Assembly (NCBI GenBank): GCA_032718475.1
Contig: JAUCBJ010003342.1
Location: 1-64,000, forward strand
DNA from: Nemertoderma westbladi
Lineage: Eukaryota > Animalia > Xenacoelomorpha
Length of the DNA stretch: 64,000 nt
Reading direction: 5' to 3'
Shown: piece after piece, positions 6,133-39,655 of the stretch
How the letters are laid out: each line of letters starts with the position of its first letter
Numbering within the stretch: position 1 is the stretch's first letter
The notes under the pieces: model-generated
The model's database searches: none
The model's input: the letters and a program-made list of their open reading frames with translations, nothing else
Told to the model about the DNA's origin: nothing
Translations under genes and position numbers: made by a program

Positions 6133-6173
6133 TAACTAAATATCAGATCCTAATTTTACAAACTTACCAAAAG

Positions 6174-8434: not shown

Positions 8435-8505
8435 TCCCGACTGGGATTCGAACTCGTAACCTATATGTAATGCAACCAACGCCTTAACCATCTGACCACT
8501 ACGCC
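8435..8505 (-). other. Degenerate tRNA-like / Pol III A-B box sequence in the BEL-A 3' LTR
   Basis: Minus strand reads GGCGTAGTGGTCAGATGGTTAAGGCG...GAGTTCGAATCCC; acceptor stem does not pair. Confidence 0.6.
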
Positions 8506-9308
8506 ACGAGATTAACTACGGGTTTTATGTGTACTAATAAGAATAGGCATTTTACATTACTGTAACTTAATCAAAATGCGTCGGATTTTCGAAAGTTTTA
8601 ACGTTTATACTAGAAATGCTATCCTATAGTGAAATAATTCATCACCGCTCCATGAAAACAGTAAGTAAGACTGTTTTCACCAATCGAAATACAAACTATT
8701 TACAAATACTTCTAAATCTACTGGTGGGGCCTAAAATATAAAATAATCACTATCTAATTATTGCATACTTAATATTGCAGGTATGACATAAATACAATCC
8801 ATCATACATACAAAATACAAATTTACCAATCAACTTTAGTGCATAAAATACAAAAAAGGCTTTCGGTTATCAAGATAAACAAATTAAACGAATCAGAACA
8901 AAATAAATCAAAACAAATCGAACAAATAATTTCAAATCTTTCAATAAGTTTAATATATTGTAAAAAAAACATAATAAATTCACTAAATTAAATCAGTCCA
9001 AATATAAAATAAACATAATGCGCTAATAATCTTTCAAATAAGTCTTAAAGTGTCCCCCTGACGATCTGAAAAGTTCGTCCTGCTGGTCTGGATATCTTCT
9101 CCTGAGCACTAATTGCTAACGGTAGGCTCGCAAGCCTTCCTTCTCTATCTCGCTCCTCCAAAACCAACGTCCGATATAAAATCCCAAATATAATATCTAA
9201 ATATAAATGTCCAAATATAATATCCCAAATATAAACATCCAAATATAAAATGTCCAATATAATATCCCAAATCGGTAGGCTCGCAAGCCTTCCTTTCTTC
9301 TCGCTTTC

Positions 9309-9967
9309 CTATTCCTTGGCCGAACGGGCTCGTCCACGCCCTCTAGTACGACTGGGTGGTGGTCGAGGTCGAACTGGACTCGGACTTCGGTGTCGAGTTG
9401 TCGGTGGTTCCAAAACGCTAGGAAAGGGGACGACGGGAGTTTCGCACATCCGTCGTGCGCTCAGTCCTCTAAATCCTCATCCGATTCCAATCGTCGACTT
9501 AACATCGGATCGAGTTTCTATAACGCTGGGAGGAAGTCGAAAGGGTGGGACTGTTCCGTCCGTTGACACCTTGCTCACTGACGTCGTTTGAATCCTAATG
9601 GGTTCCGGCAAAGCGTATCCTGTCCCTCCGTGTGGTTCTCTAGCAAGGGAAACCGTGCCCCGAGTCATCCGGATTTATGACTTCGATGTCGTCCTCTCGG
9701 CGACATTTACTACTTTCTTTATCTCTTGTCCGGCCTTTTGGGCTCTAAGTATACGAAGTTGCGGATCATCCTGTGGGTGACGCATCTTTTCAGCTAACGG
9801 CGTGGCTTTGAAGCCAGTCTCACGCAAAACGTTGGTCTTGTCTAGAATACACGAGGTTACGCGTTTGTGATAAAATGCGCTCCTGTATGCCCAAGCTATC
9901 GAATGCCAGGCTCCTCGATTCCGCTGTTCAACTCGCAATTTGTCGAATTCCCCGGCGGTAATCTTGT
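9309..9967 (-). pseudogene. C-terminal part of the BEL-A accessory ORF2, split off by the BEL-B insertion
   Basis: Joins in frame across the TSD: WNFQTVV-NK-ITAGEFDKL. Two internal stops (9675, 9477). Ends RHRSPSPVRPRPPPSRTRGRGRARSAKE*. Confidence 0.8.
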
Positions 9968-11139
9968 TGTAAAAGCTTTTGCGGATATAACCAGTCATTT
10001 TTCTCCGCAATGAACTGTTTAGTTGTTTTAGCGGACATAACAAGCCATTTTCTCCACAATGTACCCTGTAGGTGTTTTAGCAGACATAACAAGCCATTTT
10101 ATGCCGCAATACGCCAAATACTCTAAATAGAGTGTAGTTCAGATGACGAAATCTGTCAGCTGATTTACTGTCGATGTGGAACTTTCTTTGTTCGGCTCGC
10201 TCGACCAATCAGAGCGATTTTCATTTTATTTTGCACAGAGGCCTACGGAAAACCACGCAATGCATGACGGTCTTTGTTTACCTTTCTGAGCGAGAACAAC
10301 TGCTTGGAAATTATTCTGTGCTTCTGTGTTAGAAGTTTCAGACTTTGGCCAACATTAGACGGCTTTGATTATAAAAACGTAAATCTATTAACTGGCCGGG
10401 ATCTCTGCATCACCTGGCAAACCAAACTCTGCATTCACGCAATCCTATTCACCACATTATTTTACTGCTATTTACTGTCGGTTATTAATTGTACATGTTG
10501 ATGGATATGTTGTTATATTTGGAGAATATCGATAAATAATCATAAAACCCCAATCTTCTTGATTACTAAAGGTTAGAGAGACCGGTTACTGGTAGCAATT
10601 GCGACTTACATTACAGTGGTTTTATTAAATGCTATTTCATAATCCCTACATGTGTCAGTTGCTATCCTCCTTATATATGATCAAATTCAGTGACGGTCGG
10701 CAGATCAGTGTGCAGCAGTGTGCAGCAGTGTGAAGTCGTATGCAGCAGTGTGACAGATAATAAAGCATCTCCTAAAGAATGCGCCATTTACTAAAATCAA
10801 TAGCCATCTCGTTGTGTTTAGTATAAGTCATAACTCTGTTTTATACTTAAAGCGCCACGTCCTAAAGGAACTGTTAATATTTCCTCGAAAGTGAATAATA
10901 TTGTCAGAGATTATATAGTAACTATCAATCGAATAATACCGTAGGTCTGCACCGCAATCCCTTCAAAGCATCCGAATCCAGTCTCCCTTAACCGTGGGTG
11001 AATGATCGCGCATGTTACTTCATGTTACTAATGTTACTTCATGTGCATTAAATAATTATTATAGGCTAAAGTCGATTTATAAACAAGAGGATACCTAAAA
11101 TTGGCAGGTTAAACTGCTAAAGGTCTGAAAGCGTGAACA
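9968..11139 (+). repeat. BEL-B 5' LTR
   Basis: Near-identical to 27035-28202. Confidence 0.96.
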
Positions 11140-13040
11140 ATAATAGATTTTTTGTTTTGATTGCACGTAGGCAATAAATTCGACTGTACCGGTCGGACGG
11201 TAACCTGTAGGCCTAACTACCTAACCACCCGAACCGGTACTTACCGGTACCAGTATTATTTCGATTGTGATATTGTATATTGGTAGGCTGTTTAAGAGAT
11301 TAGGGACTGTATACCCCTTGTTTCTTTTAGAGCTTATTTATTTCTGTCAGTTTTATTTATTTGTAAGTGTAATATTGAGCAGAAGGCGTGTAAGCCCACT
11401 CAAATTGTACAAATAATTTGTAGGCTGGATTGTTGTCTGACTGTTGTTGAGTCTGAAGAGATTGCAGTGTGTGTAGAGTGTATGTCCGATAAAGTACTAG
11501 TTAGGAAGATGGGGGCATCCAGTGCTGTAAGGTAAAACCCCCCCCGAAAGAATAAGTTGTACTACTCAGTTAGAACGCATACTAACTAACAATTTCGGAG
11601 TCTGCATATACTGTAGTTTATTTAGGCTTGATAGTGGTCTGCCAGCGTTTGGTTTGTATTTTGTTTGTGTAGTCTGTACGGGTAGCGTATTTATTTATTA
11701 GTCAGAGTATATGCAAGTATTCGCAACATACATAACTCCCCAAGTTTATTCCTACAGTAATTGTGCTTGTTATACATACCGTTATAGTTAAATTAACCCC
11801 GGTACTACATCAGGGCTGCTTGGCGTAGGTAAAGACTGGTGATTTTATGCTCTAGTCACTCCAGCAGATACCGTGGTTCTTTTAGCTGTACAAGTATTTT
11901 TAACTGCTGGTTATTTGTTGTATAAGTACTTGTACCTAATTTAGGGTTTAGTGTACATTACTTTCCGAAGGTAATTAGTGTGTAGGCAGTATATTTGTGT
12001 TGTAAAGTGGTTAATAGGCACGTTAGCTCTGGTTGGCTGCGGTAATTAACTTCTAGGTAAGAACACTCCGGGTACATAACGTAGTACTTATAGAGCTGTA
12101 CAGCTAAAGACTATAAGTCGTCAGACGGTGGTATTTTCTTATCTGGACAATACAATTTATTTACTACTGCTTAATTATTTTCAAATACCGTAGTATCCTG
12201 TCCGTTGTAATAACCAGAAATTCTAACCCCTTGTTAGGCTGGTTTGTAGATTTCCTGTAAAATTACCCTAAAATTTGTACGTATAATTTTTGTGTTTATT
12301 TAGAGATTATAATCTCACCCAGTAATTGTACGTAATTTGTAGTAATAAGTAACTTAGTCAAGTAGAATTATTTGTTTTAGTGTCCAACAAGTAGCACTTC
12401 ACTGAGAGCATTCAGCTTCGGTGTAGTGACTCCTTACCAGAAATAATAACATTTATTTCAAATATTGTGAAAAACCCATTATAAGGGTATATATATATTA
12501 TAAATCAACTCAAACCGATTTATAAAATAGTAGGCCTGTCATACATCAATTAGGTCTTAATATCAGTTGGACTACTGCGTAATAACAGTAATAAAGTAAA
12601 GAAAGGTAACCCTAAAATTCAGAAATTCAGTTATTATAAAATAATTGACATACCAGTATTTACTATAGGCTTATTATATTTATTTAAATAAATTTATGCT
12701 GAAATTATATACCGGTATTCTGTAATTAATTCTAGGCTATAATTATACTTATATATACTATAAGTGTAAGCCGTATACCGGTATTCACGGTAGGCTTATT
12801 ATATATTTATATATATTTATGCTGAAATTATATACCGGTATTCTGTGACAAACCCTAGTCTGTAATAATACTTATATATATACTATAAGTGTATACCGGT
12901 ATTCTAATATATTATATATATATCGCGTTACATTGAGTAATGATATCGGTAATTAATTACTAGGCTAACAGTTGATACTGAATTACTAGACTTGCTTTAA
13001 CTGTCATTATAGTAGTAGGCATTCAACTGTACAATCAAAC

Positions 13041-16000
13041 ATGGCTGACACAAAGCAAACTCTGTCAGATAGTCTCCTAGAAACAACAGTCTGCGACTCC
13101 GACAGGAGTACCGAACATTTGAGACCAAAGTTCAAGTCCCCTCCTACTGTAAGAAAAGTCATCCCTTCAGTAGTAGTATCAGACCCTAGGCTAGTAAAGC
13201 ACCGTAGGTCTATCATAGGCACTCGGGCTCAAGTCAAGCGGGACCAAGAGGCAGCTGTTAAACAGCAGCAACACTCGAACCGAGAACTTATTTCTCAGCG
13301 GCCCGATAGCTCCAGTAGTTCAGATACTGTAGAGTTGACACCCGAGCGCAGAGCAAAGATGGCAGATGCAGTTTATTCGGATCCACTTCTCATTCTTCCT
13401 GAAGCCGTACTCACTAGGGTAGTGATTGTGGTGGAGGAACATCAAATCGATTGGGCGAGAAGTAAGCGATCGACCAAGGACAGTTATGCGGGATACACAA
13501 TAGAAGAACTAAAGTCTATTGTCGAGACGCAATGGAACTTCCCCGGACCCGGACTCCCGTTTAACTTATCAGAAGCTGCCTGGGAAGATTTATACAGGAT
13601 GGGAGTGGTGAAGGACACTAGAGATCCAGCTGTGGGGAAGAGGTCGGCAGCCGGATATGTACAGGGATTCTTCAGCTCTTTGGAGCGATTAGAGGAACAA
13701 CTGTTCCAACAACCCCAGGGACCTCAAGAGCAGGGAGAGCTGCTTTATCAAGTTCAAGAACGAATCCTAAGAATCAGACTAATCCTTTCAGCCTTTGAGG
13801 AAGCCTCGAAGAGAAGCCAAGACACGTCGTTGCAAGTTGCCGTAAAGACTTGGTTCCAACGGGTGAGTCTTAAAGTCCAAGGGACGACCCAATGGAAAAT
13901 TCAGCTAACTGAGCGCTCGACCCACGGAGAATCAACAGACGCTACCTTTTCTCAGGTGGAAAGCGAAGCGACATCAGAGAAACCTCAGAAGAAGGACGCC
14001 ATTGACATCTATCTGTCAGACTATCAATGATTTATAGGTGACAAAGAGTTAAGGAGATGGCTAGCTGGACTTCACCCTAATAGTGAGGGAGCCAAATATG
14101 TGCTAGACTCATTAGATGCAGAAAGGTTAGCAGCGAATTGAGCTAAATTTGATGAAAGAATCCGCATCGTTAGGGTCCAAGAAGAACAGCTAAAGAAAAA
14201 ACAGATAGAAGACAGACAGGAAGCAGCAGCGGCAGCAGCAGCTGCAGAAGCGGAAAGAAAAGCGACAGCAGCAGCTGCAGAAGCGGAAAGAAAAGCGGCA
14301 GAGGCGGAAAGAAAAGCGGCAGAGGCGGAAAGAAAAGCGATAGCAGTAGCTGCAGAAGTGGAAAGAAAGGTGGCAGTGGCGGTGGCGGAAACAAAACGGA
14401 GGGCATCTGAAGAGGCAACCCAACTAGAGTTGGAAAATCTTCAAGAGAAGCAAGACTACTTAAATAAACAGATAATAGCTAGTGATATGCAGATGATAAG
14501 TCGAGCTACTCCCAAGAGACAGGTATTTACATCATCTGATGAAGGCAGTACGACAGATCCTGAAGGTGGAGGAAATAGATCTCGTTACTACAGATGTAGA
14601 AGAACGCCCCACCGTCAGCAATTGCATAATTTGCCTCCAGCCGTGAGAAGGCAACTAGCTAGTGTAGATCTAAGTAATCCTGAGCCTTCAGATCAAATTA
14701 TTAGAGTAGAAAGACTCCCTACCATAGTAGATGAGCCTGAAATAATTAGGCCTGTTCTCAAAGCCACCCCTTCTGTGATAGAGACACCTGTACTTCCAGA
14801 ACCTACCTCTAAATTCCCTTTGCACAGTACTAAATTACCTGTGCCCAATAGAATAGCCGCAGAAACAGTCCCAGTCTTGGACGCCGAGCGAGACATCAAC
14901 GATTTATCGCCCGTCGTCCCTCGTCTACCCGCTACTATGTTGGCGGCTCCCGCTTCAGCGGTCGAGTGGGTGGATGAGGGACGGCGGGGATGGATCTCCT
15001 GCTCGGACAATTGGAGGAACAGCGCCTAGATACCTCCCAGCACATCCGAGAAATGGAAGGGACTGTGCAGCAGTTAAAGGGAACAGTAAGAGAGGGTAGG
15101 TTAGAACTGCAAGAAGTGCAGCAGAGTATCGCGTTAGAACGCGATAAATTAGTAAATATACAAAGGGGTATAACACCACCCCCTATAACAATGTGTCAAC
15201 CTGTTAGGTCTGAAGTATTTCATGCGCAAGGTGTGGAGCCTACACGCATCTATACTGCTAGTGAAGTAGAAACTCCTATAGTAAACCCTATTAAGGGTAC
15301 GATAAACCTGTTGATAATGATATTCCATATAGACCTGATCATAATCCGAGAAATTTATATACCGATAACTTGATATTAAATAATACGATGGCCCAAGAAA
15401 GTTTTACGCGTCAAATGGCTAGAACCGAAGCCCGTCAAGCGGTAAAGGTGGGAGAGATCGTCAAGTTCAACGGAGATGAGATGAAATGGTTACCTTTTTT
15501 ATGAATATTATAAAGATAACATACAGAACTCTGTGCTATCTAATGGAGAGAAACTTAGATTCCTCATCGAGTGCTTGGAAGGATCTCCCAAGTTAATGGC
15601 GTTAAAGTTTATTGGACATCCAGATGGATTAAGACAAGTTTGGGATACACTAAACATCAGGTATGGTAATAGGAATAACATAGCTAGGTATTTGTATGCG
15701 AAATTGGTAGCGCCACGAAAGTTTCTTAGCAGCGGGATTATAGAATTTTCCGATGAGATCCAGGAGATTTGTAGACAATTAGATTGGCTAGGTAAGTCTC
15801 ATGAATATCAGAGTTCTATGGTTATTGGAGCTGTAGCATCTACCTTGCCAAAGGGTGGAGTAGGTACTCGTTGGGACAAAAGAGTTCTATATATGATGGA
15901 ACAACAACAAAGAGACCCTACCATGGCTGATCTCATGTCATTCTTAGATGGAGAGGTAAAATTACAGCTCCTAAAGCATTCCAGAGAGAAGACACTGGAA

Positions 16001-16779
16001 AATAAGGTAAGTGAAAAACCCGTTTCTAGGAGAAAGGTAACACCAGTGTGTTGTACAGACGACGGAGAAAGCCAGACCTCTCAAGAGGAGAACAACGGGA
16101 AAGACACCGAAAGATCTTACTATGTCAACAAAGCACCTAAAGACGTAAGTAAATTTAAGTCTCGAACCAGTGACAGGAGAGAACAGGTAACAAAACTCCT
16201 CCTACGTCTCCTAAGAGAGTTCATGGAAGAAAGCCCGAGGAAAGAACGAGTGTGCACAACAATACCCAAGGTAAAGTAAGTAACATCAAACCAAAATGTG
16301 CATTGTGCGACGGGCCCCACCGTTTAAGTGTGTGTGATGAATTCTTAAAGAAATCCCTAAAAGATAGACGTGATGTCATGTGGGATAAGCGGTTGTGTTA
16401 TAATTGTCTCAGACAAGGACACCAACGGCGAACCTGTTACTCCGATGCGAGGTGTGCTAAGTGCGGCGCGAAACATCATATCTTGTTGCACACCGAATTT
16501 GAAAGAAACAGCACGAGTCAGGTAAGTGAGTCCGAACTACATGTCCAATTCAGTGATATGAACGACACTGACCAAAGTTCTGAGATGGAAGGATTCTACA
16601 CGGACGAATTCTCCGACGAAAACGAATCCTGTTATTTGATAAACACCGCGGTGTATCGAGCGCTTACGTATGAGACTGAAACCGATAACGAAGCGCACCC
16701 GGTTATTCCTGACCGACAACCATCTTGGAAAGCACCAACTCCAACGTCGGAATCCGGGAATTCCCCGTCGTTCAGCTAA
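13041..16779 (+). pseudogene. BEL-B gag (stops and frameshifts)
   Basis: AEAERKA coiled-coil repeats; KFNGD...W and EKLRFLIECLEG (DUF1759-like Pao Gag); knuckles CALCDGPHRLSVC, CYNCLRQGHQRRTC, CAKCGAKHHILLH. Confidence 0.9.
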
Positions 16780-19700
16780 GAGTCCATGGATTAAGTAAGA
16801 GATTTATAGTCCACGCACTCCTGGACTCCGGCAGCACAGGAACGTTCATCGATAAAGAACTAGCTGAAGACATCTTTGCAGGACAACCCAAGTTCCGAAC
16901 TAAGTTGAACCTTTCAGGAATTATGCAGGTTTGGAAATCTACAGTAGCTACAGACTACTATGTAGGCGCGTTGTCCACTCCCCAAGATGAACTAGGAGAA
17001 CACAGCATAAGGTCAGTAAAAATGGTGGCGATAAAGAACTTTGCTACCAGCCAAGTAGAACCTTACAACTGGGATGAAGACGATTTTACCCAGCAACATA
17101 ATATCCCTAGATTCAACACCGACTACCCAGGGGTGCAAATATTAATCGGCCAAAATGCGCATGAGGCGCTTGAGACATTAGAGAAACGACCTGCTCGACC
17201 GCAACCATTGCAAACCTATGCGGGAAGAACTAGAGTAGGTTGGTACTTCACTGGACCTTCCCGTAGAACGCTCATGGAAAGATTACCCACTGAACAAATC
17301 CATCAGATGAGTGAATGGGAAGAAGAAATCAGTGAGGGAGTAATCACACCTGAGGGAACACCATACTCCTCAGATAACGACGATATTACCCAACTATTTG
17401 ACGAGGAAAATATGATAGACCTCCTCACTGAAAGTGAAGCTTGGAGAAACCAAGTGCACCTTTGCCATCTCGTCTATCATGGCGGACAACTCAACTATGA
17501 CGATGAGCTAAATGAGGTGATAGATCGACATAACACTAAGATTCGCGACGAACACGCCGTACGATTCTTTACTCAAGAAGCTGTAGAGCCTAATTCCTAC
17601 GACAAAGCACTATCGGTCGAGGAGGAAAGAGCCAAGCAGATCCAGGCAACGACTACACGTTTCCTTAGAGATTAAGGGAGGTATGAGATTGGTCTGCCAT
17701 TCCGAAAGCAAGAACCTAATTTTATAAATAACCGACCCTTGACGGATAAAAGAATCGCGCAACTACATCGACGCCTTATGGCAAATGCTTCAGCTAAAGA
17801 GATGTACAAGACACAGCTGAAGAAATTCATCGATAAGGGATATGCGGAGCGAGTACCTGAAGAAACACCCATAACTGAGAGAATGTATTATTTAACCCAT
17901 TATTACGTTCCCAAACCTGGTAAACCCAACAAAGTTCGGGTAGTATTTGACGGCTCCGCCGTTTACATGGGCCAATTCCTTAACTCGGAGTTGTTGCCGG
18001 GACCCAACTTACTCCAATCCTTGTTGGGAATACTCTTAAGATTACGGCAATATTCGATCGCCTTCGCCTCGGATATAGAAGGCATGTTCTTACAAGTTAA
18101 GGCGCTGGAAAGGGATCGAGACAGCCTGCGATTACTGTGGTGGCCTGAAGGAGACCTCAGCCAAAAACCTGTGGAGTACTGGATGACCATCCAGGCTTTC
18201 GGAATCATCTCGAGCCCCTCAAACGCCTGTTCAGTAGTGCGCACCACTGCTGATGACAACCGAGACGCCTTCTCTAAAGCGGTTATCGACAACATCAAAC
18301 GGGATATATACATGGACGATAATTTAAAGTCCCTCCCATTGGTGGAAGAAGCCATTGATGTTGCCAAGGGAACGGTAGAGTGTTTGAAATGTGGTGGATT
18401 TCGACTAATCAAATTCACTAGTAACTCCCGTGAGTTTCAGGGATTGATCCCGGTAGAAGACCGAGGAGTTAAAGACCTGGACCTAATCAAGGACGATCTT
18501 CCAGAAACTAAGACGCTTGGTTTGAAATGGGACACGGAGAGAGATATCCTGTTTTTCCAGCTAAAACAGCGAGATAATCCAGTTCGAACTAAACGGATTT
18601 GTCTAAGTATCCTGAGCACTTATTTCGATCCATTGGGATTTATTAGCCCAGTTATATTGGTTGCTCGGAGTTTAGTTCAACAAATGTGGCTTGAAAACCA
18701 CTCGTGGGACGATCCACTTAAGGGAGAACGACTAAAGAAGTGGATGAAATGGGAAGATTCTCTACCATCCATCGAGAACTTTACGATTTCCCGTTCATAT
18801 TTTGGTCATGTTCTCCCCACGTATTCCTATCAACTCCATGTGTTTGGAGATGCCAGCGATATGGGAATAGGTATAGTAGCCTACCAGAGAGTTGAAACTC
18901 CGGATGGAATTAAAGTCGCCTTGGTTACCTCTAAGGCCTTGATAAACAACAAGCTACGAGTTCCTCGAGCGGAGTTAAAGGCGGCTCTATATGCTACAGC
19001 CATCGGCCGGAATGTCACAGAACAGATGACTATCCACTGGAGAAAACTGTCTATTGGACTGATGCTTTACTCGTTTTGGAGTATATAACCAATGAAGTCT
19101 GTCAGTTCAGCGTCTTCGTTGCCAACAGAGTAGCCGTTATACTTAGTCGCACTAGTGTAGATCAATGGAGACATTGCCCTGGGACAATTAATCCAGCCAA
19201 CATCGCCTCCAGAGGAGCAACTCCTCAAGAACTGGTAGACACTCCAGACTGGTTAGGTGGACCCGACTTCCTAAGTAAAGAAGAAGATGAATGGCCTCCT
19301 CATCTTACCACAGCTGAGATTAGACAAGCCAAGGGAGCGGAGAAAGTCAAACCTAAAACCCGGACGAGTAAATCGAAGTTATTTAAACCCGTGATAGATC
19401 TGTCTGTACTACATATTTCCGGAGACGACGCTGTGGATCTAAACTCCCCCGCCACAAATAAGTCTGTTGTGGAAATCAGAGAGAGAGACTGGAAATCTGG
19501 AACACCAGACGTTTCGCAGGGACTCTCACCTCTCCTACAGAGAGCGATACATCACTATAGCTCCTGGAATCGGCTTTGTAAGGCCATTGTATATTTAAAG
19601 CGATGCTTTCATCATCACTACTCCAGGACGAAGATCGCTAGTGATACCGCTCCACTGACATCTGTGCAGGTCCATGCTATTAAAGATCTTCCCAAATATA

Positions 19701-22650: not shown

Positions 22651-22815
22651 CTAAGCCCTTGGGTCGGACAGTGGAGTGACTCGCGCTGGTTATTATTGTC
22701 GTTGTGTAGCTACTACGTTGGCGATAGACACCACGACAACAGTATATCGGCGCTGAGGATCTTGCGCTGTCCGGGGGCCGTGAGGGGTAGGCAGCGACGC
22801 CCACTAGCCTAATTA
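22651..22815 (+). ncRNA. Putative structured RNA element, copy 2, 37 nt upstream of the ORF2 ATG
   Basis: Same stems as 315-476 with compensatory or wobble changes. Confidence 0.55.
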
Positions 22816-22852
22816 TAATTAATTATAATATTGATAAACTCATATAGCAGCT

Positions 22853-26899: not shown

Positions 26900-27034
26900 A
26901 GGACTCTTGCTAGCCTCAAAAAACTACGTAAACGCCGTCTGCGTAAGAAAGACTAACTGTTTAGAGTATTTTTATATTTTAGAAACTGTGATTTTTTATA
27001 TTTTATAGAATTAAATCCCATTTTCTGGGAGCGG

Positions 27035-28202: not shown

Positions 28203-31200
28203 CTTGTTCACCACAGTTTGAAAGTTCCAAGTATTCTTGTTGTCGGGGTGTACCTGTAGAAAGTAGTCCCGCACAACTTTAAATCTGCTATCCAGTGGCA
28301 ATATATCCAGCACCTCCAAAAGTTCGTCGTATTGAGGCATAGCTGACACGTATCCTTCCTTCGACATTATGAGAGGGTTTACGGCCCAAAATCCCAAATG
28401 TGCTCTCATAGGGAAACGGCATCGCTGCGTTGATACATGCTCGTCTGCTAGATTCTCCCAATGGTCGAATAGCTGTCGAACGATTTTAACTGACATGTGC
28501 TCATAGGGGACGTCTCTAAGTTGACATTCGGATGCCCTATGGCCTTTAATATTACAATACGTGCACTGCGGCACGAAACGCCAGCAAGTGTAGAAAGTGT
28601 GCGAATGCTGATCCCCGCACCGGTTGCATACTAAGTCCGGTAGAGATATGTGTTTCGCTCCGCATTTCTTTGCGTGGTGGCCAGTTGCCCCGCATCTGCC
28701 ACAAATAGTGTTGGCAGGATACCAAACTCGCTCATAGATAAGATCTCCGATGGGGCGAGCGCTACCGTCCACGTGATAATTCTCATCATCCGGGTCAGTC
28801 GGTATGTTCGTCTCCGTGGGTTGTACACAAACCATGGCATCGCTTTTCTCCAACTCGCGTATCTCAGTTCGCATCTTCCTCGGAAGGTTCTCCTCTATCT
28901 CTATGAGTTGCCGCAATGGTTCGTCTATTATCGCCAACTCGGTTGAATCCACATCGTTGTGATGGGCGGTAGGCTCGCGAGCCTTCCAGGATCCTTCCGG
29001 GCCTTTGAATTCCGCGTGGCGTTCCCCGTCATAGGGTACTAACGTTAACATCGACGGTCTGTCGACTAGGCTTCCCGCGTGAGTGAGATAGACATCCCAG
29101 AAAATGCTAAGTCCCGCTCGCGTGAAAACTTCGCAGTGCGCATCGGTGTTATAAAAGGGTTGGCGAAATCGTCGGAATACATCAGTATGCGTCCTTCCTC
29201 TGTCGTAAAAGGTATGTCCTTCACCGAGACATAACGGATGTCGCTTTAGGGTCCTAGACACTACATCGGCGATGAAGCAAACGTTGACCGAAGATTCTAT
29301 CGCCAAATAGTATTGCAAGATTATTTGTGGAGGTGAAGTAATCGCCCAGTACACGCAACCTCGCCACTTTAGCTGTGACTCGAACTCGTTTACGCTGGGG
29401 GTATCTCCCTCTCCGTATACGTCCGTGTATTTGCTCCTCTTACTCTCCTTATAATCCCAACTGAACATTAGATATGAGATATAACCCGTCCCAGTTTTTA
29501 GTGTGTTATACTCCCTAAAATATCCTTGCTCAATAGCCCAAAGCAACAATGGTCTAGTATCCATGTATGGCGTAGGCAATCGATCCTCTTCCGTGGGCAT
29601 CCCTGCGAAATCGCTAATAAGGTCATCCCGTACACCGGATCCGATCTTGACAATGCTCTTGTCCAACACAACATCTCGCACGGCCTTTGGTAACATCCTA
29701 GCTTCTATGCTACAAGCCAGGTCCATGGATTTAACTATCCGTTTTATCATCGCGTGTCTTTGCGTCGTTCCTTCCGGCATAGGCATCTTTCTATCGCTCC
29801 TCTGTCGGCTGAAGACATGTAACACGCCATCTTGTGCTCTAATCTGTATAGTCTTCGAAGTGAGGCTTTGCTGATGGCTTCCTCCTTCATTATTGTAAAA
29901 CATGTAACCATTCTCCTTCAGAGATCGGCTAGTCACGTCCCAATCGTCGAGTAAATCGTCGGTAGGGTTCCAAATTCTCCCAATCATCTTTTCATCATCG
30001 AAGCTAATAGGTTTACCGGTCCAATTGGTCCTGATATCGGTGTCGGTCTCAAACTTCCGACTCCGATCCACAATCGAATCGTTTTCGTCAGATACCCTCG
30101 CAAGATGCAAGGTGCGATATCCATCCCCGCACGATCCACTTCCTTAAAGTCCGTAATATGTGGAGGCATGTTGCGTACGATTTTCTGAACTATTGTTCTA
30201 CGCAACTCGGCTGACTCTAACACATCACCATAGGTAACCGATGGGAGGAAATCCAGGTTCGAAATTATCTCTGGGTGTTCAACTATAGGAATCTCATAAG
30301 TTGTCTCCTTCCGGGTCGGTATACTAATAGGAAAGCTAGTTGGTCTTGCAACCGGTACTATCGTTCCAGCAGAATGGGGCTGAGGTTCTCGCGTCATCTC
30401 GACATGAGGTATCTGTAGTCTCTGCGACAAACGCTGAGCAAAGGTGATACTATCGAAGAGCTCGGGTGTCATCTCCTTAGGTTTGGTTTGATCGTGGGAT
30501 ATCCAATAGAATGGTAGGCTCGCGAGCCTTCCGCCTAACTCCTCGATCTCGCCTTTCTCGTACGCCTTGTACGCCCTGTAGAGGCTCAAAGCTTCCCGTT
30601 TCTCTTGCGTCGACTTATTAGACTCATCCACTACCATGCTGTAGACGTCTGGTTCGACTAATTTAGGTTCGTAAATAACGATCTCACCCGCGTTCGGTCC
30701 ACTCATCTTAAATGAATGATACGGATTCGTCAAAGGGTATCCGCCTTCTTGGTAACGTAGACTTTGGTGGTATGAGCATCGCGCTAATATCGGCTCGGGG
30801 TTCTCCGAGTTCAACCGCATAGGAATCGCATTGTCTTGCTCACGCATACATGCTCCACATTTGTAAAACAGTTTGTATATGGAGAACGCGTCCTTTGTCT
30901 CTGGATCTGCTATAAAGATGCATTCCTTCGAATTCGTCTCTGGCTGCAGGTAAGGGTTCATTTACCGTCAAATATTGCAGCATATGATATAATCGGCGTA
31001 TCTCTGTGTCTGGATCCTCACAAATGTCACTAGCGTCGCATAACGCATCGTAAGGATATAACGCATTGAACTCCGCGCGTAATTCCTCCGTTCTTTTGTT
31101 ATAAGCATCCAATCGCTGTTTATTCACATTCGGGTCCGCCTTGGATTTAGCGAGCTTGGCTGTACTCCTAGCCATACTCTCCACTCCAAACACACTAAAG

Positions 31201-31292
31201 TTTTTAGCTCCATAACGATTAAACGGCGCCTGGTGCTCTTGTTCCTGCGTAAACCCCTGACGTAACTCCTTATAAATCTTCTCCGCCATCAT
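28203..31292 (-). pseudogene. BEL-A accessory ORF2, N-terminal and central part: DEDDy-like exonuclease + 3 CCHC knuckles
   Basis: ORFs 31292-30840, 30961-29984 and 30110-28203. YNNEG; LPKAVRDVVLDKSIVKIGSGVRDDL; YLAIE; CGRCGATGHHAKKC, CNRCGDQHSHTFYTC, CTYCNIKGHRASEC. Confidence 0.8.
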
Positions 31293-33889
31293 ATACGCAT
31301 ATATATGGTTACATATCGTTACGTTTCTACTAGATGAAACACAAAATAGAGGTTAGATGTGAGGTGACTTAGAGTTTGTCGGCTTTTGGCTCAACTTTGC
31401 TCTAAAACCCCAACCCATTTGCCTAATGACTTCGGGTTCGCGTGATTTCGCACTGGCTCCTAATCCAAAAAAAAATTGTGCCGATAAAAAACGAATTCCG
31501 GGTAAACTAGCCGCGAGTCTAAAATACTCATCTTTTAATTTCCCAAACTACATTCCCAAAGAAATAATGCAGTCGAGAATTAATTCGGTCTAAATAATAG
31601 TAGACACGACTACGTAGAACAAGGCCGATTTTCTTTTTCCAAAAAAATTTATCGGTAGGCTCGCAAGCCTTCCATCCGCTCTTGTCCTCCCCAATTTTAA
31701 CTTCTATCTAGCTGTATTCTAGAATTCGCATTCACTGGAGAATCATTTTTCTTAAATTTAAATCCAACTAAATGGATTTGTCTAATAATTTTTGAAAATT
31801 GTCTCACTTGTGGGTTCCAAGTGGAATTCCATTCCTACTGTACACACAATCCCGCTCCTATGTGATACATAAGGGTACTACCCTCCATGTTCACATATAA
31901 AGACAATGGAATTCCACTGCTGTCTCTATCTACAGTGAAGAGGATTACAAATGCACATACAGTAATACAAAATACTAAATTACTAAAATATGGTAGGTCT
32001 ATGTGGCGGCCAACAAAGGTCCCACATCTCTATTTACTAATATTGGGTGGAGATTTGTAGTCTCCTGTCTCGTTTCTAGTCTCCTCAAGGAGTACGAGAC
32101 GTTGTACAGGTCTGTCTGCGGTACGTCCGTCGATAGTCCTTACAGTAACTGTCCTTACTACACCAGATGTAGGGTGCGTGGTCAAAATGACTCCAGTCAG
32201 CCAAAACCGTCTTTTCAGATTGGCTTCAGCCAATAAAACATGGTCACCGCGTCTCAAACATCGGGTATCAAGATACCAAGAGGTTCTGGTTGAAATAGAG
32301 GCCAAATAATATTTCTGCCATATTTCCCAGAATTTATTTGCAAGTAATTGAGTGATTTTCCAAGCCTTGTTGCCGTATCCATCGCTATTAACGGCTACCG
32401 AAATGGGCAACAATGTCGTCGGCGCCTGCATAAGCAGGTGCGCTGGTGTCAAGGCAAACTGTGCGTCGTTATTGTCTGGGATCAAAGCGATCGGTCTAGT
32501 GTTTAAAATCGCTTCGATTTCTATTAGTAACGTCGTCAGTTGATCGTCTGTCAATATGTGTTGCGTCGGTATTACTTTAGCCATAGCTGTCTTAATCGAG
32601 CCAATCAGCCTTTCCCAAATGCCGCCTCTCCACGGACTGTCTGGAGTATTAAAATACCAAACAATACGGTGAGGATGTAGTTCCTCGGAAATCTGGTTTT
32701 GGTCCAACTTCTTTAAAGCTCTGGTTATTTTGTTCTGTGCACCCACAAAGTTTGTCCCTTGGTCACAATAAATGGATTTGACCAATCCACATCTAGCGAT
32801 AAATCGCCGTAAGACTAGGATAAAGGCATTGGTGGTTAAATCTGTCACATGCTCTATATGGACAGCTCTGCTGGCCATGCAAGTGAAGATCAATCCCCAA
32901 CGTTTTACCTGTACCCTTCCGCGTTTCGCGATTATGGGTCCAAAACAGTCTATCCCTGTCTCAGTGAAAGGGGGGCTAAATGTCTGAAATCTCGCTAGTG
33001 GTAGTTCACTCATTTCTTGGTGTCCTATCCTCGCGTGCACCTTCTTACAAATCATACAGTTCCATGTTACCGAACTCAGTGCCTTACTAGGTCTAATCAG
33101 TACAAACCTCGATCGTAAGTGTGATAGACAGTGATGTCTACCCACGTGTTTGAGTTGTACATGTGCGTCCAGTATCATAGCGCGCTGTAATTCATGGTGT
33201 TGCGGTATGATGATAGGATACCTAAAGTCTAGTGCAAAGTCGATGTTTTGGAGTCTGGACTTGTGACAAAGTAAGCCCCGGTAAATAATCGGACTCCAAC
33301 TCAAAATCGGTGAAGACTTGATCTATTTACCTTGGTTGATCGCTGTGAACTCTCGTGCGAAATATCGCAATTGATAATGTCTAATGATATCAACTTCACA
33401 ATGACTAACTTCCTTTAAGGTAAGTCTTCTCGGAAAGTCGCGTTTGCCTCTGGCATATTGTCTCAAACGTTTGAGCCATGCTAACTTGCGGCACGCGTCA
33501 GTCCATGATCTAGTTAGGTTCACTATCATGTCAACGTAAGTGTTAGTGACGTCATCAGGTATGGTGTAGTCATAGTGTGGATACTTGTTTGGACTTGGTA
33601 GGCCCGCGGGCCTTCCGGTAGGTTTGTCTGAGTCCCCATGTATGTCAATCTCTACGGTCTTACCTTTACCGTCCGCATCTAGTGAGTCGACTGGCAGTAA
33701 CGGTTTCAACTCTATAGTCTTAGTGTGTTCCTGTGAGCCTGTAAGCTTCCTAACCTTAGTCACACGTTTACCTGTAGGTGGTAAGTCAAGTCTTTGAGCG
33801 GAGTGTGATCGCTGTGGCCACACCTTTGTCGTCCAAAGAAGTCAAATTTGGTAAGTTTCTAAATGTCCGCTCCAATGGGTCTTCTACTG

Positions 33890-34340
33890 GAGTGTCTAGT
33901 AGACAGTCTGGAGAAGCGTCCGGTGAACAGTCTGGTGAGACGTCTGGTGAGACATAGCGCGGAACATCCGGCGAAATGTCCTGTCGTCGGTCCCAAAGAA
34001 AGTCAGGCATAACTTCTGTCAGAAAGTCTGGTCTAAAGTCTGGTCCAATGTCTGGTCCAAAGTCTGGTCCAAAGTCTGGTGGACAGTCTGTCGAGATGTC
34101 TGGTGGAAAGTCTGGTGAGACGTCCGGTAGACAATCTGTCGAGAGTTCCATAAAACAATCTGGCGAGCAATCCGGAGAACAATCTGGTGTCGCTTCTGGT
34201 GAATAATCTGGCGAGTAATCTGGTGAACAATTCGGCGAAACGTCTGGTGAAATCTCCCGCGGAACATCCGGTGAAAGATTCGTACAAGCGTCTGGTCGAG
34301 AGTCTGGTGAGACGTCTGGCGTAATGTCAGGTCTAGTGTC
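33890..34340 (-). repeat. Degenerate 12-bp coding repeat (PDxS)n in the RNase H-integrase linker
   Basis: SPDV/SPDC/GPDF tetrapeptides in ORF 33786-34562. Confidence 0.85.
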
Positions 34341-35695
34341 CAGGTCATCAGATTTCGTCCGTCCTTGTTTCCTCTTGACCTTGGCGTTGGCTTTCGCTTT
34401 AGATTTGACAACCTTGTCGATTTTTATCTCGGCACCCTCTGGTATGGTATTGGTTGTCGCGTCGAATAACGGTGGCCATTCGTCTGATGGTCGCTGTAGG
34501 AAATCGGGTCCTCTAAACCAAAAGGATTTATTGTCTGGTTTACAAAAGTCAAGCGGTTGCATCCCCCGTGACGCGAAGTCAGCTCGGTTCAGCTTCCCTG
34601 GACAGTGATGCCAATCTTGTTTGAGAGACTGGTCTAATATTTCAGCCCGTCTGTTGGCTATGAAAGTCTTGAACTAAAACGCTTCGTTGTTTATGTACCA
34701 AATTACCAACGTCACATCCGTCCAATATGTGACCTTCAAGTTAGCCTCCAGCTCGCGTTGAACTAGACTGACAATATCGGTGGATATCGTCCCGGCTTGC
34801 AGCTCTCCACGAGGTACAGTCATATACTTCAACGGCATTGTTCTAGCCCTAGAAGTAACGAGAGACACATCGTAGCTGTCCGATGTCACTTGTCGTCTAA
34901 GGTATAAAGTAACCCCCAATCCATCCTTGCTAGCGTCACTAAAGCTGTGAAGCTCTAAATCGGCAGGAAAGGTGGTCTGCAAAGGAAAGTATACCCTCGG
35001 TATGGTATAGTCTTGTAGGAACGTCAGTTGGGCTTCCCAGTCCCTCCATTGCTCAGCTAACTTTTCTGTGATGGGGTCGTCCCATTCCAGTCCGGCTTGC
35101 CAAATGCTGCGGAGTATGATCCTAGCATGTAGGAACACTGGACTAATGAAACACAATGGGTCATACAATCGACTCATGGTCGATAAGCAAGTCCTCTTAG
35201 TGAGAGGTCTAGTCTGGTCGTTGGACCTTACACGTACCCTAAAATTGTCGGTGTTAGGGTCCCAACTAAGTCCTAATACTTTGGTCGTCGGTAGAGGTTC
35301 TAGGTCTAAGTCCAAGTCACCTCCACTACGATCAGTCGGGTCAAATGAGTTCACTAGTTCGGATTCGTTGGAAGCGAACTTCGTCAGGCGGAATCCACCC
35401 TCAGCGAGACAATCCTGGAGTTGGTGTGCTACGGTTGTAGCGCGCTACAAAGCGTCACAACTCTTGAGTCCGTCATCCACGTAGAAATCTCGTTCCACTG
35501 TCCGAACTACTTCTGGGTCAAATTGGTCTCGTCTGTCCAATGCGGTCTGCTTTAAGGCGTACATGGTGCAGTTGGGGCTGTCCCTGGCTCCGAAAACTCT
35601 TACCTGCATTTGGTAAGTTTCTGGCGGAAGTTCTAAATTTCCGTCCAGATACCAAAGAAACCTCAAGCTGTCCCTGTCCTGCTCCAAAGCCTTAA

Positions 35696-37265
35696 CCCTA
35701 TTAAACCCGGGGGGGGGGGGGTCAATATGACCCCTTCCGTGGTTTTTTTATTATAATTCTGAAACAGACGCAGTTGGGAATCTGATACTTTATGACTTTT
35801 CCTAAAAATCTATTGTCTTCCTAATAGTGAAAACCGTTTTCAAAAATATTGGGTAGTTTTCGAGTTATAGCACAATTTTTTAACCCTACTTTTGGCACTT
35901 TTTTTGAGACGTTTTTTGAAAATTACATTTCATTAAATATGAATTGTAACATCTCTATTTTTGATTTACACCGGTTTTTTGGTGTTAGCAATAGGATAGA
36001 ATTCATATAAATCGATTTAGAAATTTCAAACTTGTTTTTTTCGGTGGGTGCCAAATTTTGGTGCCAGCACCAAATTTTGAAATATGTCAATTTTGTAAAT
36101 TGATTGTTTGAAACTTGTTTTTGACGCAATTGGGGTTTTTTGGGGTTCTGGTTTCGATGGAATATATACGAGTTGCACCAAGCGTATCAAACTTGTATTT
36201 TTCGGTGCTGTGTGCAAATTTTGGTGCTAGCACGAAATTTTGAAAATCCATTTAATAGATAAAATTGCTTTTGACAATTTATTTCTTGCGTTTTAGAGGT
36301 TTATGGCTGTTCTGAATTCAATGGAATATATAATTATCGAACTAGACATCTAAAACTTGTATTTTTCGGAAGTGGGTGCAAAATGTGGTGCTAGCACCAA
36401 ATTTTGGAAATCATCAAATATATCAATTTATTGTGTCACCTTGTTTCTTGCGTTATACGGGTTTGTGAGGGTTCTGAATTCAATGGAACCAGTAAAAATT
36501 TCATAAGAGTTTTCAAACTTGTATTTTTCGCCGGTGGGTGAAAATTGTTGTGCCAGCACCAAATTTTGGAAAATAAGCAAATTGATCAGTAGATATAATC
36601 ATCTTGTTTCTTGCGTTATACGGGTTTATGCGGGTCCTGAATCCGATGGAATCAATAAAAACAGCACTGGACATCGCAAACTTGTACTTTTTGGTGATGG
36701 GTACGAAATTTGGTGCTAGCACCAAAATTTGCCAAATTACGCCGAAAAATACACGTAGCAATGATCTGGCATATTAGAAATGTATTCCATTAGAATCAGC
36801 GCCCTAGAAAACCTGAAAATGTGAATTTATAGCATCGTATAAGTGAATTAAAAATTTTGTGTTCTAACTGAAAAGTGCTGGTTACTTGTTTTTTTCATTT
36901 TTTTCCTACTCAGAGAGGACTAAAGAGCCATTTATAGTAATCATATCATTTTTAAATATTTTCCAATGTATTTTGCGCCCCAGAAAACCTGTATTGAAAA
37001 ACAATTAGCCGAAAAATGTAACTTTAAAATTTTGTGAAAATTGTGCACTACTTGTAATTTTGGTGCTGCAATATTACCATCCCAGTACATTTTTTCGAAA
37101 ACTTTTTTTTCGGTCGGATCCAGACTAGTGATACCTACGTACAAACAAAAAATCAGACGTTTTCGTTAATATTTGTAGATTTTAGAGGGAGGGGTCAATA
37201 TGACCCCCCCCCCCCCCCCCCCCCCCGGTATTTGTACAGCATTTTATAGCCCGGTACTAATAGGG
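35696..37265. mobile_element. piggyBac-type non-autonomous element (1570 bp), TTAA TSD
   Basis: TTAA-CCCTATTA...TAATAGGG-TTAA; subterminal GGGGTCAATATGACCCC; internal GCACCAAATTTT repeats; removal restores the RT frame. Confidence 0.93.
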
Positions 37266-37671
37266 TTAACCTGGTGAAACATGGCCTCTACGTCACAGGT
37301 GAAAGCCACTTTGCGTTGTCTAAAACGCATTAGGACTCCCATGAGGTAATTATTCATATTCGGCCCGTCAATCAATTCGCTGTTCATAGACATCCCTTGG
37401 TAAAGCGCTGCGCAGTCGTTGACTACACGCACCCTGCCAGGTTTGTCTGGGTGTCGAACAAAATGATGTGGCAGGTAATATGTCTGATCTGTGGTTACCT
37501 CGGGATTTAACATCCTAATGGCGTATCCCTTTTGGAGATACGTCTGAAGTTGCGCATTGTATTGCATATGGGCCGTCTCGTCTCGCAACAATCGCTGCCT
37601 TATTGATTTGAGTCGCCTCAAAGCAAGCGGGTAATTGTTAACGAGTTTAGGTTGTCCATTGCGCCATAAGG

Positions 37672-39655
37672 TAGTTGGATAAGGTGGTTGGCGGGTTCGC
37701 GTCCGGCGTATTACCTTTTGTCTCATTTGTTGGGGTCTAGAATCTACGATTCTCCGTTGTTCGGTAGGCTTGTAAGCCTTCCACGAAGTCGTAGGTCTCG
37801 TTAAACGTTGTTCGATCCTGCGGGTACTACCCACATCCGTCCTCCTCCGTTGTTCGGTAGGCTCGCAAGCCTTCCACGAAGTCGTAGGTTGCGTCGAACA
37901 TTGTGTCAAAGGTCGAGTAAAGTAGTCGGGTTTCGTAGTCGGTCTATAAATAACTGGGTTCGCACAGCACATCATAGGTTTAACTGCTAACGGCTTACTT
38001 ACCTGTTTAATTGTCATAAACGCAGGTTCCTCTCTCCCTACAAGTAGACTACGACTTACTGTAGGTGGACTAGATACATTACCTGCTAAAATTGGCGATG
38101 AAGTTGCCCTAGGTTGCGGTAATTCCGTCACAACAAACCTGTTACCTTGCGTCGAGTGCACGGGTGTTAATTCCTTAGGTTTCGTAACATAGACCAGTTT
38201 TATCGGAGTCGTGGGTTTGAGCATAGGAATCACTTGTGGAAAACGTTCACAGTAATCCTCGACGAACTCATCTCTTCGATCCATCGCTCCAACACTTCCT
38301 TCGTCGATTCGCTTCTGTATCCCGCGATATCAAACTTCCAGGTGATCCAGGGCAGACAAATCGTGTCCAGCTCGCGATCTTATAGATCTATCTCTTGCGT
38401 CGAGGTCCGCTTGCGCGTTCGCTGTCTCGCGCAATATTCGATTCAGTTCGAACTGTAGTTGCATCTCCCTTTCACGTCGATCTGCTACTTGTTGTTGTGC
38501 CGCTAACTCCGCTTCTTGTATAGCTAGTCGAGTGTTAATCTGTCTCACTTCCATCTTGGTGCGAGAGTCAGATGCCGCTTTCTTCCGAGCCAACTCCGCC
38601 GCGTTTACTGTCGCAACTCGTGCTAATTCGTCGGCTGCAGCTTCTCGTGCCAAATCTTCCTCCAATCTTCTTAACTCCAAGGCGTCGACTTCTGCTTGCG
38701 CTTTGAGTTGCGCAATCTTCGCCTCGTTTTCTCTTTGCTGTTTCTCTCCCTCGATGGCGATCTGTGCCATCTGTCGTTGCGTTTCTTCCTCGAAGACTTG
38801 TTGTCGGCGTGCAACTTCCTGTTGTTGTTGAGTAATGTCAGACGCTGTTCTACTATCGTCGCCATTCTCGCTCCGCATGCTAACGAATGATCTATCCATC
38901 GGTGGATTTTGGTAGACTCGCGAGCCTTCCATAGTGAGAACTTCCGTCGTCCCTCGCGGTTCGAATTCCGGTTCTTCGATCGGTACGCCGTTTCTACGAA
39001 GAAAATTGGTGAGTGTCTCCAACCTCCCGTCCAGGCAATAAGGTTCTTCTTCCTCTTCGGGTTGTAACAATGCGTCCAAAACTGACTCACCTAGCAGTTG
39101 GTCAAACTGCTCCTGTTGAGCCAATATTATTACTGACTTAAACTGGATAATGCTTTCTCTCGCACTTACCAACTTATCTATTATCTTTACCTGAGTAAAG
39201 TTGTCTCCACGCAACTCTGCGAGTTCGTGTAAACCTTTCAGTTTATCTACGGAGGCATGTACCCTACTTTCTATCCTTACCTGTAAGGTGTAGAACTCGT
39301 ATCTCGACATCGGGGCGGTTAACTCGCGTAAAACGCGAAAAACTTCTCCGAGGTTTCGAGTAATCTGGGCCATGTGTCCTCCTATACTTCTAATGACATT
39401 TTCTTGGCTTCCCGCCAAGCTTACCATGTCTGGTTCCCGTGACCTGGTCTGCGGGACTGTAAGGAAATCCTCGATCCTGCCGTCGCCACGCATTGCGGCT
39501 TCCGGTATTTCCGTTCGGGGTACCGGCGACACACGCGGTGTGACATTGGTGGAATCTCGGGTTCTCCTTCTCAGTTCGTCTACTGTTGATCTGTCCGGGT
39601 CGCACGAGTCATAGTCGGTAGGGGGGTATCGAGTCGAATGTGGTGTGTCACTCAT
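37672..39655 (-). pseudogene. BEL-A gag N-terminal part; capsid/knuckle region and protease absent
   Basis: Coiled-coil-rich ORFs 39655-38330 and 38284 onward run directly into the RT N-terminus (LWRNGQPKLVNNY). Confidence 0.75.

Follow-up and report, generated by a model that had tools for sequence, protein, structure and literature searches.

A dispersed 20-nt near-palindromic hairpin as a candidate RNA signal of a BEL/Pao retrotransposon

The window, meaning the whole 64-kb stretch of DNA analyzed here, harbors BEL-A, a BEL/Pao LTR retrotransposon whose gag-pol lies between paired LTRs with pieces 96–99% identical. The 5′ LTR (40651..42781, minus strand) is given as the part matching the 3′ LTR, with a loose inner end, and the 3′ LTR (4662..8645, minus strand), 96–99% identical to its partner, contains an insert at ~5220–7104. 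Gag and the start of RT (37244..39655, minus strand) are interrupted by a stop at 38330, and a high-copy MITE-like insert in RT (35714..37230, approximate ends) separates them from the rest of pol (32030..35713, minus strand), in which RT, the Pao Peptidase_A17 region, a 12-bp array, and an integrase with DUF5641 are broken by stops and a frameshift. At ~37666, where one sequencing run shows a loose end, this copy lacks the C-terminal part of Gag and the protease, both of which are present in the nested element BEL-B. The Pao Peptidase_A17 region is matched at E = 1.7e-40 and the DUF5641 that follows the integrase at E = 2.8e-18; 830 proteins are related at E ≤ 1e-60, those listed being 36–42% identical and nearly all having the same families. 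The sense word AGGTAA, resembling a 5′ splice site, occurs 7 times in gag and 5 times in pol, against shuffle means of 0.59 and 0.66. Between LTR pairs, transitions affect 8–20% of CpG sites versus 0.1–1% of others, and the host thus mutates CpG in these elements.

Downstream of pol lies ORF2 (28203..31292, minus strand), which has two frameshifts and runs on at 9967 beyond the nested BEL-B. It consists, in order, of an N-terminal part, a DEDDy-like 3′–5′ exonuclease domain, and CCHC-type knuckles, and a TAG at 9309–9311 probably ends it; this copy has earlier stops, which make the end uncertain. The N-terminal part gave no usable match. For ORF2 there were no relatives at E ≤ 0.001 among 3907 candidates, a single remote match, the singleton P0001 (E = 1.5e-4), in 1.84 billion representatives, and no match among the sequences of solved structures (best E = 0.96). 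The Atlas search placed the domain with WRN-like clusters (0.89), a lead only. A low-confidence model of the domain (pLDDT 41), compared with known structures for a DnaQ-like fold, is structurally closest to EXD2 (Z 6.2, rmsd 3.7, 82 aligned) and then to Nibbler (Z 4.2), and Foldseek returned nothing at E ≤ 0.001. DEDDy exonucleases have four acidic catalytic residues; by eye, the Exo I motif reads DNE in BEL-B, DTE in P0001, and NNE in this BEL-A copy. BEL-B itself (9968..28202, plus strand; LTRs 96% identical, target-site duplication CTTGT) is a sister lineage of similar size, in which a homologous ORF2 with exonuclease-like domain and knuckles occupies the same position.

A 20-nt motif recurs nine times in BEL-A. 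A pattern scan of the 64-kb window matched all nine copies on the plus strand with 0–3 mismatches each, at the positions given by the original prediction, and 100 dinucleotide shuffles of the window yielded no match; seven of the sites match the opposite strand as well because the motif is a near-palindrome. Read in the sense of the element (minus strand), the copies lie in gag (38911..38930, a G6–U15 wobble variant), in the gag linker (37856..37875 and a decayed copy at 37763..37782, where most family contigs have the common variant at 37771 and 37773), in the stretch that links the Pao RNase H region to the integrase (33597..33616), in the pol–ORF2 spacer some 360 nt before the ORF2 start codon (31654..31673; ATG at 31292), in the N-terminal part of ORF2 (30513..30532), between its exonuclease-like domain and knuckles (28968..28987), 15 nt past the TAG in the 3′ region (9274..9293), and in the 3′ non-coding region (9121..9140), where other family copies carry tandem hairpins. 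Five of the nine flank or lie within ORF2 and the remainder are in gag-pol, with a spacing of 1.1–1.9 kb across most of BEL-A. The edges are exact at 20 nt, and the flanks are unrelated at seven sites. The 37763 and 37856 copies belong to one duplicated block, 93 nt apart, and those at 9121 and 9274 have common upstream sequence of tandem origin; the nine sites thus reduce to about seven independent ones. The single orientation that had been claimed stands.

Within this window, to which all inside-versus-outside counts refer, no tenth site exists on either strand at up to 5 mismatches, which bears out the claim that BEL-B and host DNA lack the motif. The LTRs, the MITE-like insert, BEL-B, and the flanking DNA have none, nor does the region between 38931 and 42781, comprising the BEL-A leader and 5′ LTR. 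The next-best match (51493, 6 mismatches) is not a hairpin, and, with nothing at 4–5 mismatches elsewhere in the window, a halo of decayed copies is missing. An analogous dispersed hairpin family did not emerge in BEL-B from exact k-mers, mismatch clusters, or Markov enrichment. The motif had also been taken to tie ORF2 to gag-pol; ORF2 does belong with gag-pol, but the motif is needless for that link, since BEL-B has its homologous ORF2 in the same position without it. Matches to the pattern in viral (4 loci) and metagenome (25 loci) contigs are regarded as chance because each of the 29 loci has a single match, 54–75% GC, and no tblastx likeness to BEL-A; viral contigs yielded no integrase relative either. 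A mini mobile element is rejected, there being no target-site duplication in the motif flanks. REP/RAYT systems, the GTAG-tagged bacterial palindromes, are spread throughout genomes and linked to an HUH transposase; they are rejected likewise, as the motif is confined to one element of the 64 kb and a scan of 24 ORFs showed no such transposase family.

Six of the nine copies are coding, and they use all three codon phases: EGSRVY in phase 3 (38911), WKACEPT, WKAYKPT, and WKAREPT in phase 2 (37856, 37763, and 28968), and GRPAGLP and GRLASLP in phase 1 (33597 and 30513). With three further copies at non-coding sites, protein constraint is rejected as the source of the motif, as had been argued from its occurrence in every frame. 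None of the coding copies (0/6) falls in a block alignable with BEL-B, and none of 121 proteins matches the encoded peptides exactly, a result of little weight because these are only ~40% relatives. All three sense frames of the motif are free of stops, but its flipped form, read from the sequence, would be stopped by a TAG in one of the codon phases; only five independent sites were therefore free to flip, and the chance of a shared orientation is 1/32, not 1/256.

On the sense strand, the stem stays paired in every variant around a fixed A·A mismatch, A3 and A18 being invariant in all nine copies. In total, 14 of 20 positions are invariant, the outer 7 + 7 bases nearly so, with most variation in the core. 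All 40 stem cells over five distinct sequences are paired, and the variants comprise two G·U wobbles and one double change from U–A to C–G; the latter is the compensatory change already noted for the 33597 copy (U8–A13 to C8–G13). The covariation is nonetheless not above the shuffle control (41/500), one of the two double changes in that test coming from the decayed 37763 copy, and the wobble signal amounts to just two kinds of mutation, both from C to T. Minimum-energy folding predicts the hairpin in six of nine 80-nt contexts, with a folding z below −2 in only one of nine, and no Rfam family matched in the 64-kb window. A strict kissing loop is doubtful because the 4-nt loop differs among copies: CGCG in four, UGCG with its two G·U ends in four, and UACA in the decayed one. 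Owing to its near-palindromic sequence, each copy is predicted to form a duplex with every other, at −29.5 to −39.1 kcal/mol for eight copies versus −4.9 to −10.6 kcal/mol for single hairpins; where a copy has a wobble (five cases), the sense strand is predicted to form a duplex 8–9 kcal/mol stronger than the antisense. Three sense GTAGGCT words in the BEL-A leader (39907..40604, minus strand; at 39907, 40414, and 40599) are complementary to the 3′ arm of the hairpin, a lead only: leader-to-hairpin pairing is 1–2 kcal/mol better than shuffles in BEL-A and no better in BEL-B, and GTAGGC is enriched in both leaders.

Sequencing contigs of other BEL-A family copies provide a measure of conservation. 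At 9050–9319, none of the 21 listed changes (9 substitution places and 12 indel places, with 5 more indels outside these) falls in the 40 positions of the two 3′ hairpins (P = 0.034); for substitutions alone (0/9, P = 0.24), the depletion is not significant. The alignment of diverged contigs breaks off at 9142, and joints carry tandem hairpins with dissimilar spacers; in the family contigs, hairpins are fixed while spacers diverge. A search for RNA data listed no source for this sequence, and one run left the 3′ stretch uncovered, which speaks neither for nor against expression. Over 28150–40700, two of the best-supported 40 differences (1472 others stand outside this set) lie inside a hairpin, both private to this BEL-A copy, and no hairpin-to-hairpin joint is among the 15 listed there, 382 others being unlisted. 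One diverged ORF2 contig keeps the spacing of the motif site there; its 8 differences lack placement and may include a synonymous change within a hairpin. The CpGs of the motif core persist in a CpG-mutating host. With the two 3′ hairpins unchanged and tandem hairpins joined by dissimilar spacers in diverged copies, the motif looks, from these sequences, to be selected and actively amplified. The proposed dispersed cis-signal is thus upheld as far as maintenance at the nucleotide level is concerned, on the strength of three phases, non-coding sites, sharp 20-nt edges, unchanged 3′ hairpins, and tandem amplification.

The explanation that we tentatively prefer, giving it somewhat less than an even chance, is that the 20-mer serves, on the RNA, for recognition by a protein of the element and as a dimer contact; we infer that selection acts on the RNA rather than the DNA, that the element encodes the binder, and that packaging or dimerization is the outcome. 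The sense RNA would fold at each motif into a short stem-loop with the fixed A·A mismatch, and the putative binder would be a zinc-knuckle protein of BEL-A, either the Gag nucleocapsid, a domain missing from this copy, or ORF2. Binding at many points would select and pair the RNA, estimated at ~16 kb, for packaging, and chaperoning by the knuckle protein could turn copy-copy pairing into several dimer or compaction contacts. New copies of the motif may spread by template switching in reverse transcription and by tandem duplication. An extended form, which we consider unlikely, holds that the motif is a family-specific RNA barcode, present every 1–2 kb through the genes, whose copies would pair with one another and be read by ORF2, cross-linking and compacting the unusually long RNA and telling it apart from that of sister BEL families. 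Against an element-read RNA signal stand BEL-B, which has a homologous ORF2 and a similar size without the motif, the weak outcomes of the covariation, fold (6/9 contexts), and substitution-only tests, and the BEL-A leader, which lacks the hairpin, unlike known dimer signals of LTR elements, reported near the 5′ end (PMC6844567).

The same conserved dyad may be read on DNA. It is possible, though not probable, that the motif is a double-stranded site for a dimeric protein that keeps BEL-A unsilenced in the manner of VANC; a pair of inverted GGWAGGC half-sites would flank a 6-bp core that varies, with the ORF2 N-terminal part or a host factor as candidate binder. The near-invariant outer bases and variable core, the half-site core GTAGGC enriched in both leaders, and the CpG mutation imposed by the host all agree with such a site, as do tandem amplification in non-coding DNA and family specificity, both described for VANC motifs (PMC5735166), the latter fitting a BEL-B without the motif. 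Yet six of nine copies are coding and none lies in the LTR promoter, whereas VANC21 motifs are reported as non-coding (PMC5735166); neither one shared orientation nor a fixed A/A asymmetry would be expected of a free dyad site, and the recognizable domains of ORF2 are an exonuclease-like fold and knuckles, its N-terminal part giving no usable match. The RNA-side evidence applies equally to a reader supplied by the host, and a hairpin serving nuclear export, germ-cell transport, or protection from decay or splicing is, in our judgment, quite unlikely. Copies in both gag-pol and ORF2 would tag full-length and shorter RNAs alike, the AGGTAA-rich gag and pol may need control of RNA processing, and a stem-loop in the I factor coding sequence is bound by host Egalitarian (PMC13186709). 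The Egalitarian signals, however, are described as two helices with 3′-strand bulges in which shape outweighs sequence (PMC13186709), whereas the BEL-A motif forms a stem of 20 nt, hardly varies in sequence, and has a mismatch that is symmetric; moreover, BEL-B should carry a host signal too, and Rfam gave no match in the window.

Least probable in our view is that the motif is useless to BEL-A, being a palindrome that stalls reverse transcriptase, is copied by template switching, and survives only where the protein tolerates it. Copying from sense RNA would account for the one orientation, and the lack of stops in sense frames and of coding copies in BEL-B-alignable blocks favors it; quasi-palindrome correction can yield a symmetric double change, which counts for this explanation. 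Against it are the exact edges amid unrelated flanks without a decayed halo, hairpins fixed where spacers diverge, the persistence of core CpGs, and the lack of hairpin-to-hairpin joints among the 15 listed on 28150–40700.

A literature search, covering mostly titles and the beginnings of abstracts, with subscription papers outside it, found no report of such a signal in BEL/Pao elements. Most of what is known on the choice of RNA by LTR retrotransposons comes from Ty elements of yeast, with signals at the 5′ end, and a near-invariant 20-mer offers a short, ready probe for tests of binding, dimerization, and structure in the little-studied BEL/Pao group. For the extra ORFs of LTR elements with their unexplained exonuclease-like domains, the motif is also a candidate target, and, if the DNA reading is true, it would be an animal-type counterpart of anti-silencing by VANC.

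Among known systems, the dispersed packaging signals of ssRNA viruses, such as those of MS2 and the HBV pregenome, are likewise many short stem-loops that overlap coding sequence and have a recognition feature in common (PMC6281560), and a series of stem-loops built on one motif runs along the BEL-A RNA (predicted fold, 6/9 contexts). The viral signals are described as varying around a sparse motif (PMC6281560), whereas the BEL-A motif is 14/20 invariant and self-complementary; its carrier is an LTR retrotransposon, unlike ssRNA viruses, and its binding is only predicted. RNA dimers of Ty1, also an LTR retrotransposon, are palindrome-based and induced by Gag, and its PAL1/PAL2 likewise form a hairpin with palindromic arms able to switch to an extended intermolecular duplex (PMC6844567). 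As reported there, the 5′ UTR of Ty1 holds its only site, in contrast to nine dispersed copies in BEL-A, none of which is in the leader, where a kissing-loop dimer initiation site would be expected. The VANC motifs of Arabidopsis VANDAL transposons are, like this one, family-specific, tandem-amplified, and present in many copies per element, and in both systems the element encodes an additional ORF and the host methylates DNA (PMC5735166). They are described, however, as non-coding 8–9 bp DNA sites of a DNA transposon (PMC5735166), whereas the BEL-A motif is 20 nt, near-palindromic, strand-fixed, and mostly coding (6/9). The bdelloid LTR elements Juno and Vesta also have an additional ORF downstream of pol, ORF3, with a putative DEDDy-like exonuclease domain (PMC5408684). 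Such ORFs are reported there from four clades outside BEL, in an account where the word hairpin does not occur (PMC5408684), whereas ORF2 belongs here to two BEL/Pao elements and has CCHC-type knuckles after the exonuclease-like domain. Finally, the I factor and Egalitarian likewise join a coding-sequence stem-loop to a contacting protein with an exonuclease-homology domain (PMC13186709), but those signals are longer, bent, two-helix, and host-read, in contrast to the nine near-identical 20-mers of BEL-A.

BEL-A, a minus-strand BEL/Pao LTR retrotransposon, carries a near-palindromic 20-nt hairpin at the nine positions originally noted (9121, 9274, 28968, 30513, 31654, 33597, 37763, 37856, and 38911), all copies being present with zero to three mismatches, against none in 100 dinucleotide shuffles. 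When both strands of the 64-kb window were scanned at up to six mismatches, no tenth site appeared at five or fewer; the 20-mer is therefore discrete, without a halo of weak copies, and the next-best match (51493, six mismatches) is not a hairpin. Fourteen of the 20 positions are invariant, and a purine directly follows in 9/9 copies. Pattern scans of public collections returned 29 loci, each single, GC-rich, and unrelated to BEL-A.

The noted confinement to BEL-A also holds within the window: all nine copies lie in its internal region, with none in its LTRs, in the nested sister element BEL-B, or in flanking DNA. Six coding copies occupy all three phases, as had been claimed, and three further copies are non-coding; no coding copy falls in blocks alignable with BEL-B by tblastx. 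With two inserts left out, the gaps along BEL-A are 1055, 93, 2649, 1943, 1141, 1545, 1459, and 153 nt. Local duplication accounts for two of the pairs, so that about seven sites count as independent. A reversed copy would read TAG in phase 2, which left five of these sites free to flip; all five are oriented alike (chance 1/32), in agreement with the single orientation noted earlier.

Self-comparison of the window recovered two LTR pairs. The BEL-A LTR pieces (40651-42781 and 4662-8645, minus strand) are 96-99% identical, and BEL-B (9968-28202, plus strand; LTRs 96% identical) is nested in BEL-A ORF2, the extra ORF after pol, with the target duplication CTTGT. Both are BEL/Pao by Pfam and collinear by tblastx, ORF2 included. 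The BEL-A copy is decayed by stops and frameshifts, its RT is interrupted by a MITE-like insert (35714-37230; 163-bp internal repeat; about 10 times BEL-A depth in the sequencing runs), and its 3' LTR holds an insert with 68-bp and 32-bp repeats (5220-7104). An end related to the MITE-like insert adjoins the 5' LTR at 42780-42943. Since a stretch is missing at about 37666, where run X3 contigs continue differently, more hairpins may lie in the lost sequence. In-frame 12-bp tandem arrays occur in BEL-A pol (33890-34330, minus strand; SPD-type repeat) and in an unrelated gypsy-like ORF (946-4290; array at 2468-2898, plus strand), and further arrays have 44-bp units (38 copies, 48800-50468) and 78-bp units (at least 14 copies, 62918-64000).

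Other BEL-A family copies were compared using contigs from four of seven listed sequencing runs (X1, X3, X4, and X5). Across 28150-40700, where family cover is complete in three runs, 36 of the 40 best-supported of about 1510 differences lie outside the insert, two of them in the 37763 hairpin, so private decay of this copy reaches hairpins; at both places family contigs mostly have the common variant. Across 9050-9319, covered by runs other than X5, none of 21 places (nine substitutions and 12 listed indels, five more indels being unlisted) is inside the two hairpins and two adjoin them (P 0.034; substitutions alone, P 0.24), a contrast inflated by the repeat-rich spacer between. Contig depth is far lower at 9274 than at 9121. 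Just beyond the hairpin, at 9142, the alignment of seven listed contigs ends; over 73-93 nt these carry 9-11 differences. Joints that lead back to 9116 or 9118 and include 5-32 other letters place hairpins in tandem at roughly 51-137 nt, the spacers between them being dissimilar. The spacing of the 30513 site is preserved in a single diverged ORF2 contig, whose eight differences have no placeable positions.

All nine isolated 20-mers are predicted to fold as ((.(((((....))))).)), with an A3·A18 mismatch. With pair 9-12 included, 40/40 cells are paired over five distinct sequences, which 41 of 500 shuffles equal, and one of two double changes in the set belongs to the decayed 37763 copy. Of nine 80-nt contexts, six have the hairpin as their minimum-energy fold, and only one of the nine has z < -2. 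Predicted self-duplex energies are -29.5 to -39.1 kcal/mol in eight copies, and five wobble copies favor the predicted sense duplex by 8-9 kcal/mol. These predictions lean to RNA, with few events behind them.

The suggested search for an analogous motif in BEL-B found no comparable dispersed one. GTAGGC, the top 6-mer of BEL-B, occurs eight times sense and never antisense in its leader (11167-13020, plus strand; shuffle mean 0.44) and three times sense and never antisense in the BEL-A leader (39907-40604, minus strand; shuffle mean 0.19), a strand bias exceeding all 300 shuffles in both. Identical to the antisense start of the hairpin and complementary to its 3' arm, it may be an ancestor or an alternative pairing partner, with predicted pairing energies close to shuffles. 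The 5'-splice-site-like AGGTAA is sense-enriched in BEL-A gag (7) and pol (5) within 32905-39277 (minus strand), absent from BEL-A ORF2, and more weakly enriched in BEL-B; U1 binding or splicing control may be reflected here. CpG is strongly mutated by the host in both elements.

ORF2 is long in both elements (BEL-A, 28203-31292, minus strand; BEL-B, 22838-26899, plus strand), combines an exonuclease-like domain with knuckles, and is almost without database relatives, P0001 being a single remote sequence relative of like layout, exonuclease then knuckles. For the exonuclease-like domain, WRN-like clusters score 0.89 in Atlas, which serves as a lead only, and the top structural match, obtained with a poor model (pLDDT 41), is EXD2 (Z 6.2); the knuckles are weak Pfam matches (E 0.025). 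Judged by composition, the likely tail (9320-9560, minus strand), rich in Arg, Ser, Pro, and Gly, resembles basic nucleic-acid-binding tails. No published account of such an exonuclease-plus-knuckle ORF in BEL/Pao was found; bdelloid LTR elements have been described with DEDDy-like extra ORFs (PMC5408684).

The repeat is real, sharply bounded, and apparently under nucleotide-level selection, and a by-product of self-copying is the least probable explanation considered. An RNA-level role is favored over a DNA-level one by the single orientation, the fixed A·A, the sense-strand wobbles, the absence from LTRs, and the regular spacing, none decisive singly. A DNA site like those of VANC, the anti-silencing protein of Arabidopsis VANDAL transposons, would fit tandem growth, family specificity, and methylation, and is nonetheless unlikely; an RNA signal read by the host is a little less likely still. 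Our tentative preference, at somewhat below even chances, is a signal for RNA recognition and dimer contact repeated at multiple sites, in which a knuckle protein of the element would read hairpins along the RNA and the hairpins would serve as dimer contacts between RNAs.

Sirevirus LTRs are reportedly palindrome-rich. A dimer initiation site sits in the 5' leader, unlike the BEL-A hairpins. VANC motifs are non-coding (PMC5735166), whereas six BEL-A copies are coding, and Egalitarian signals differ from the hairpin in size and shape (PMC13186709). Closest in working would be the packaging signals dispersed along ssRNA virus genomes (PMC6281560), joined to palindrome dimerization of the Ty1 type (PMC6844567), membership in either being putative.
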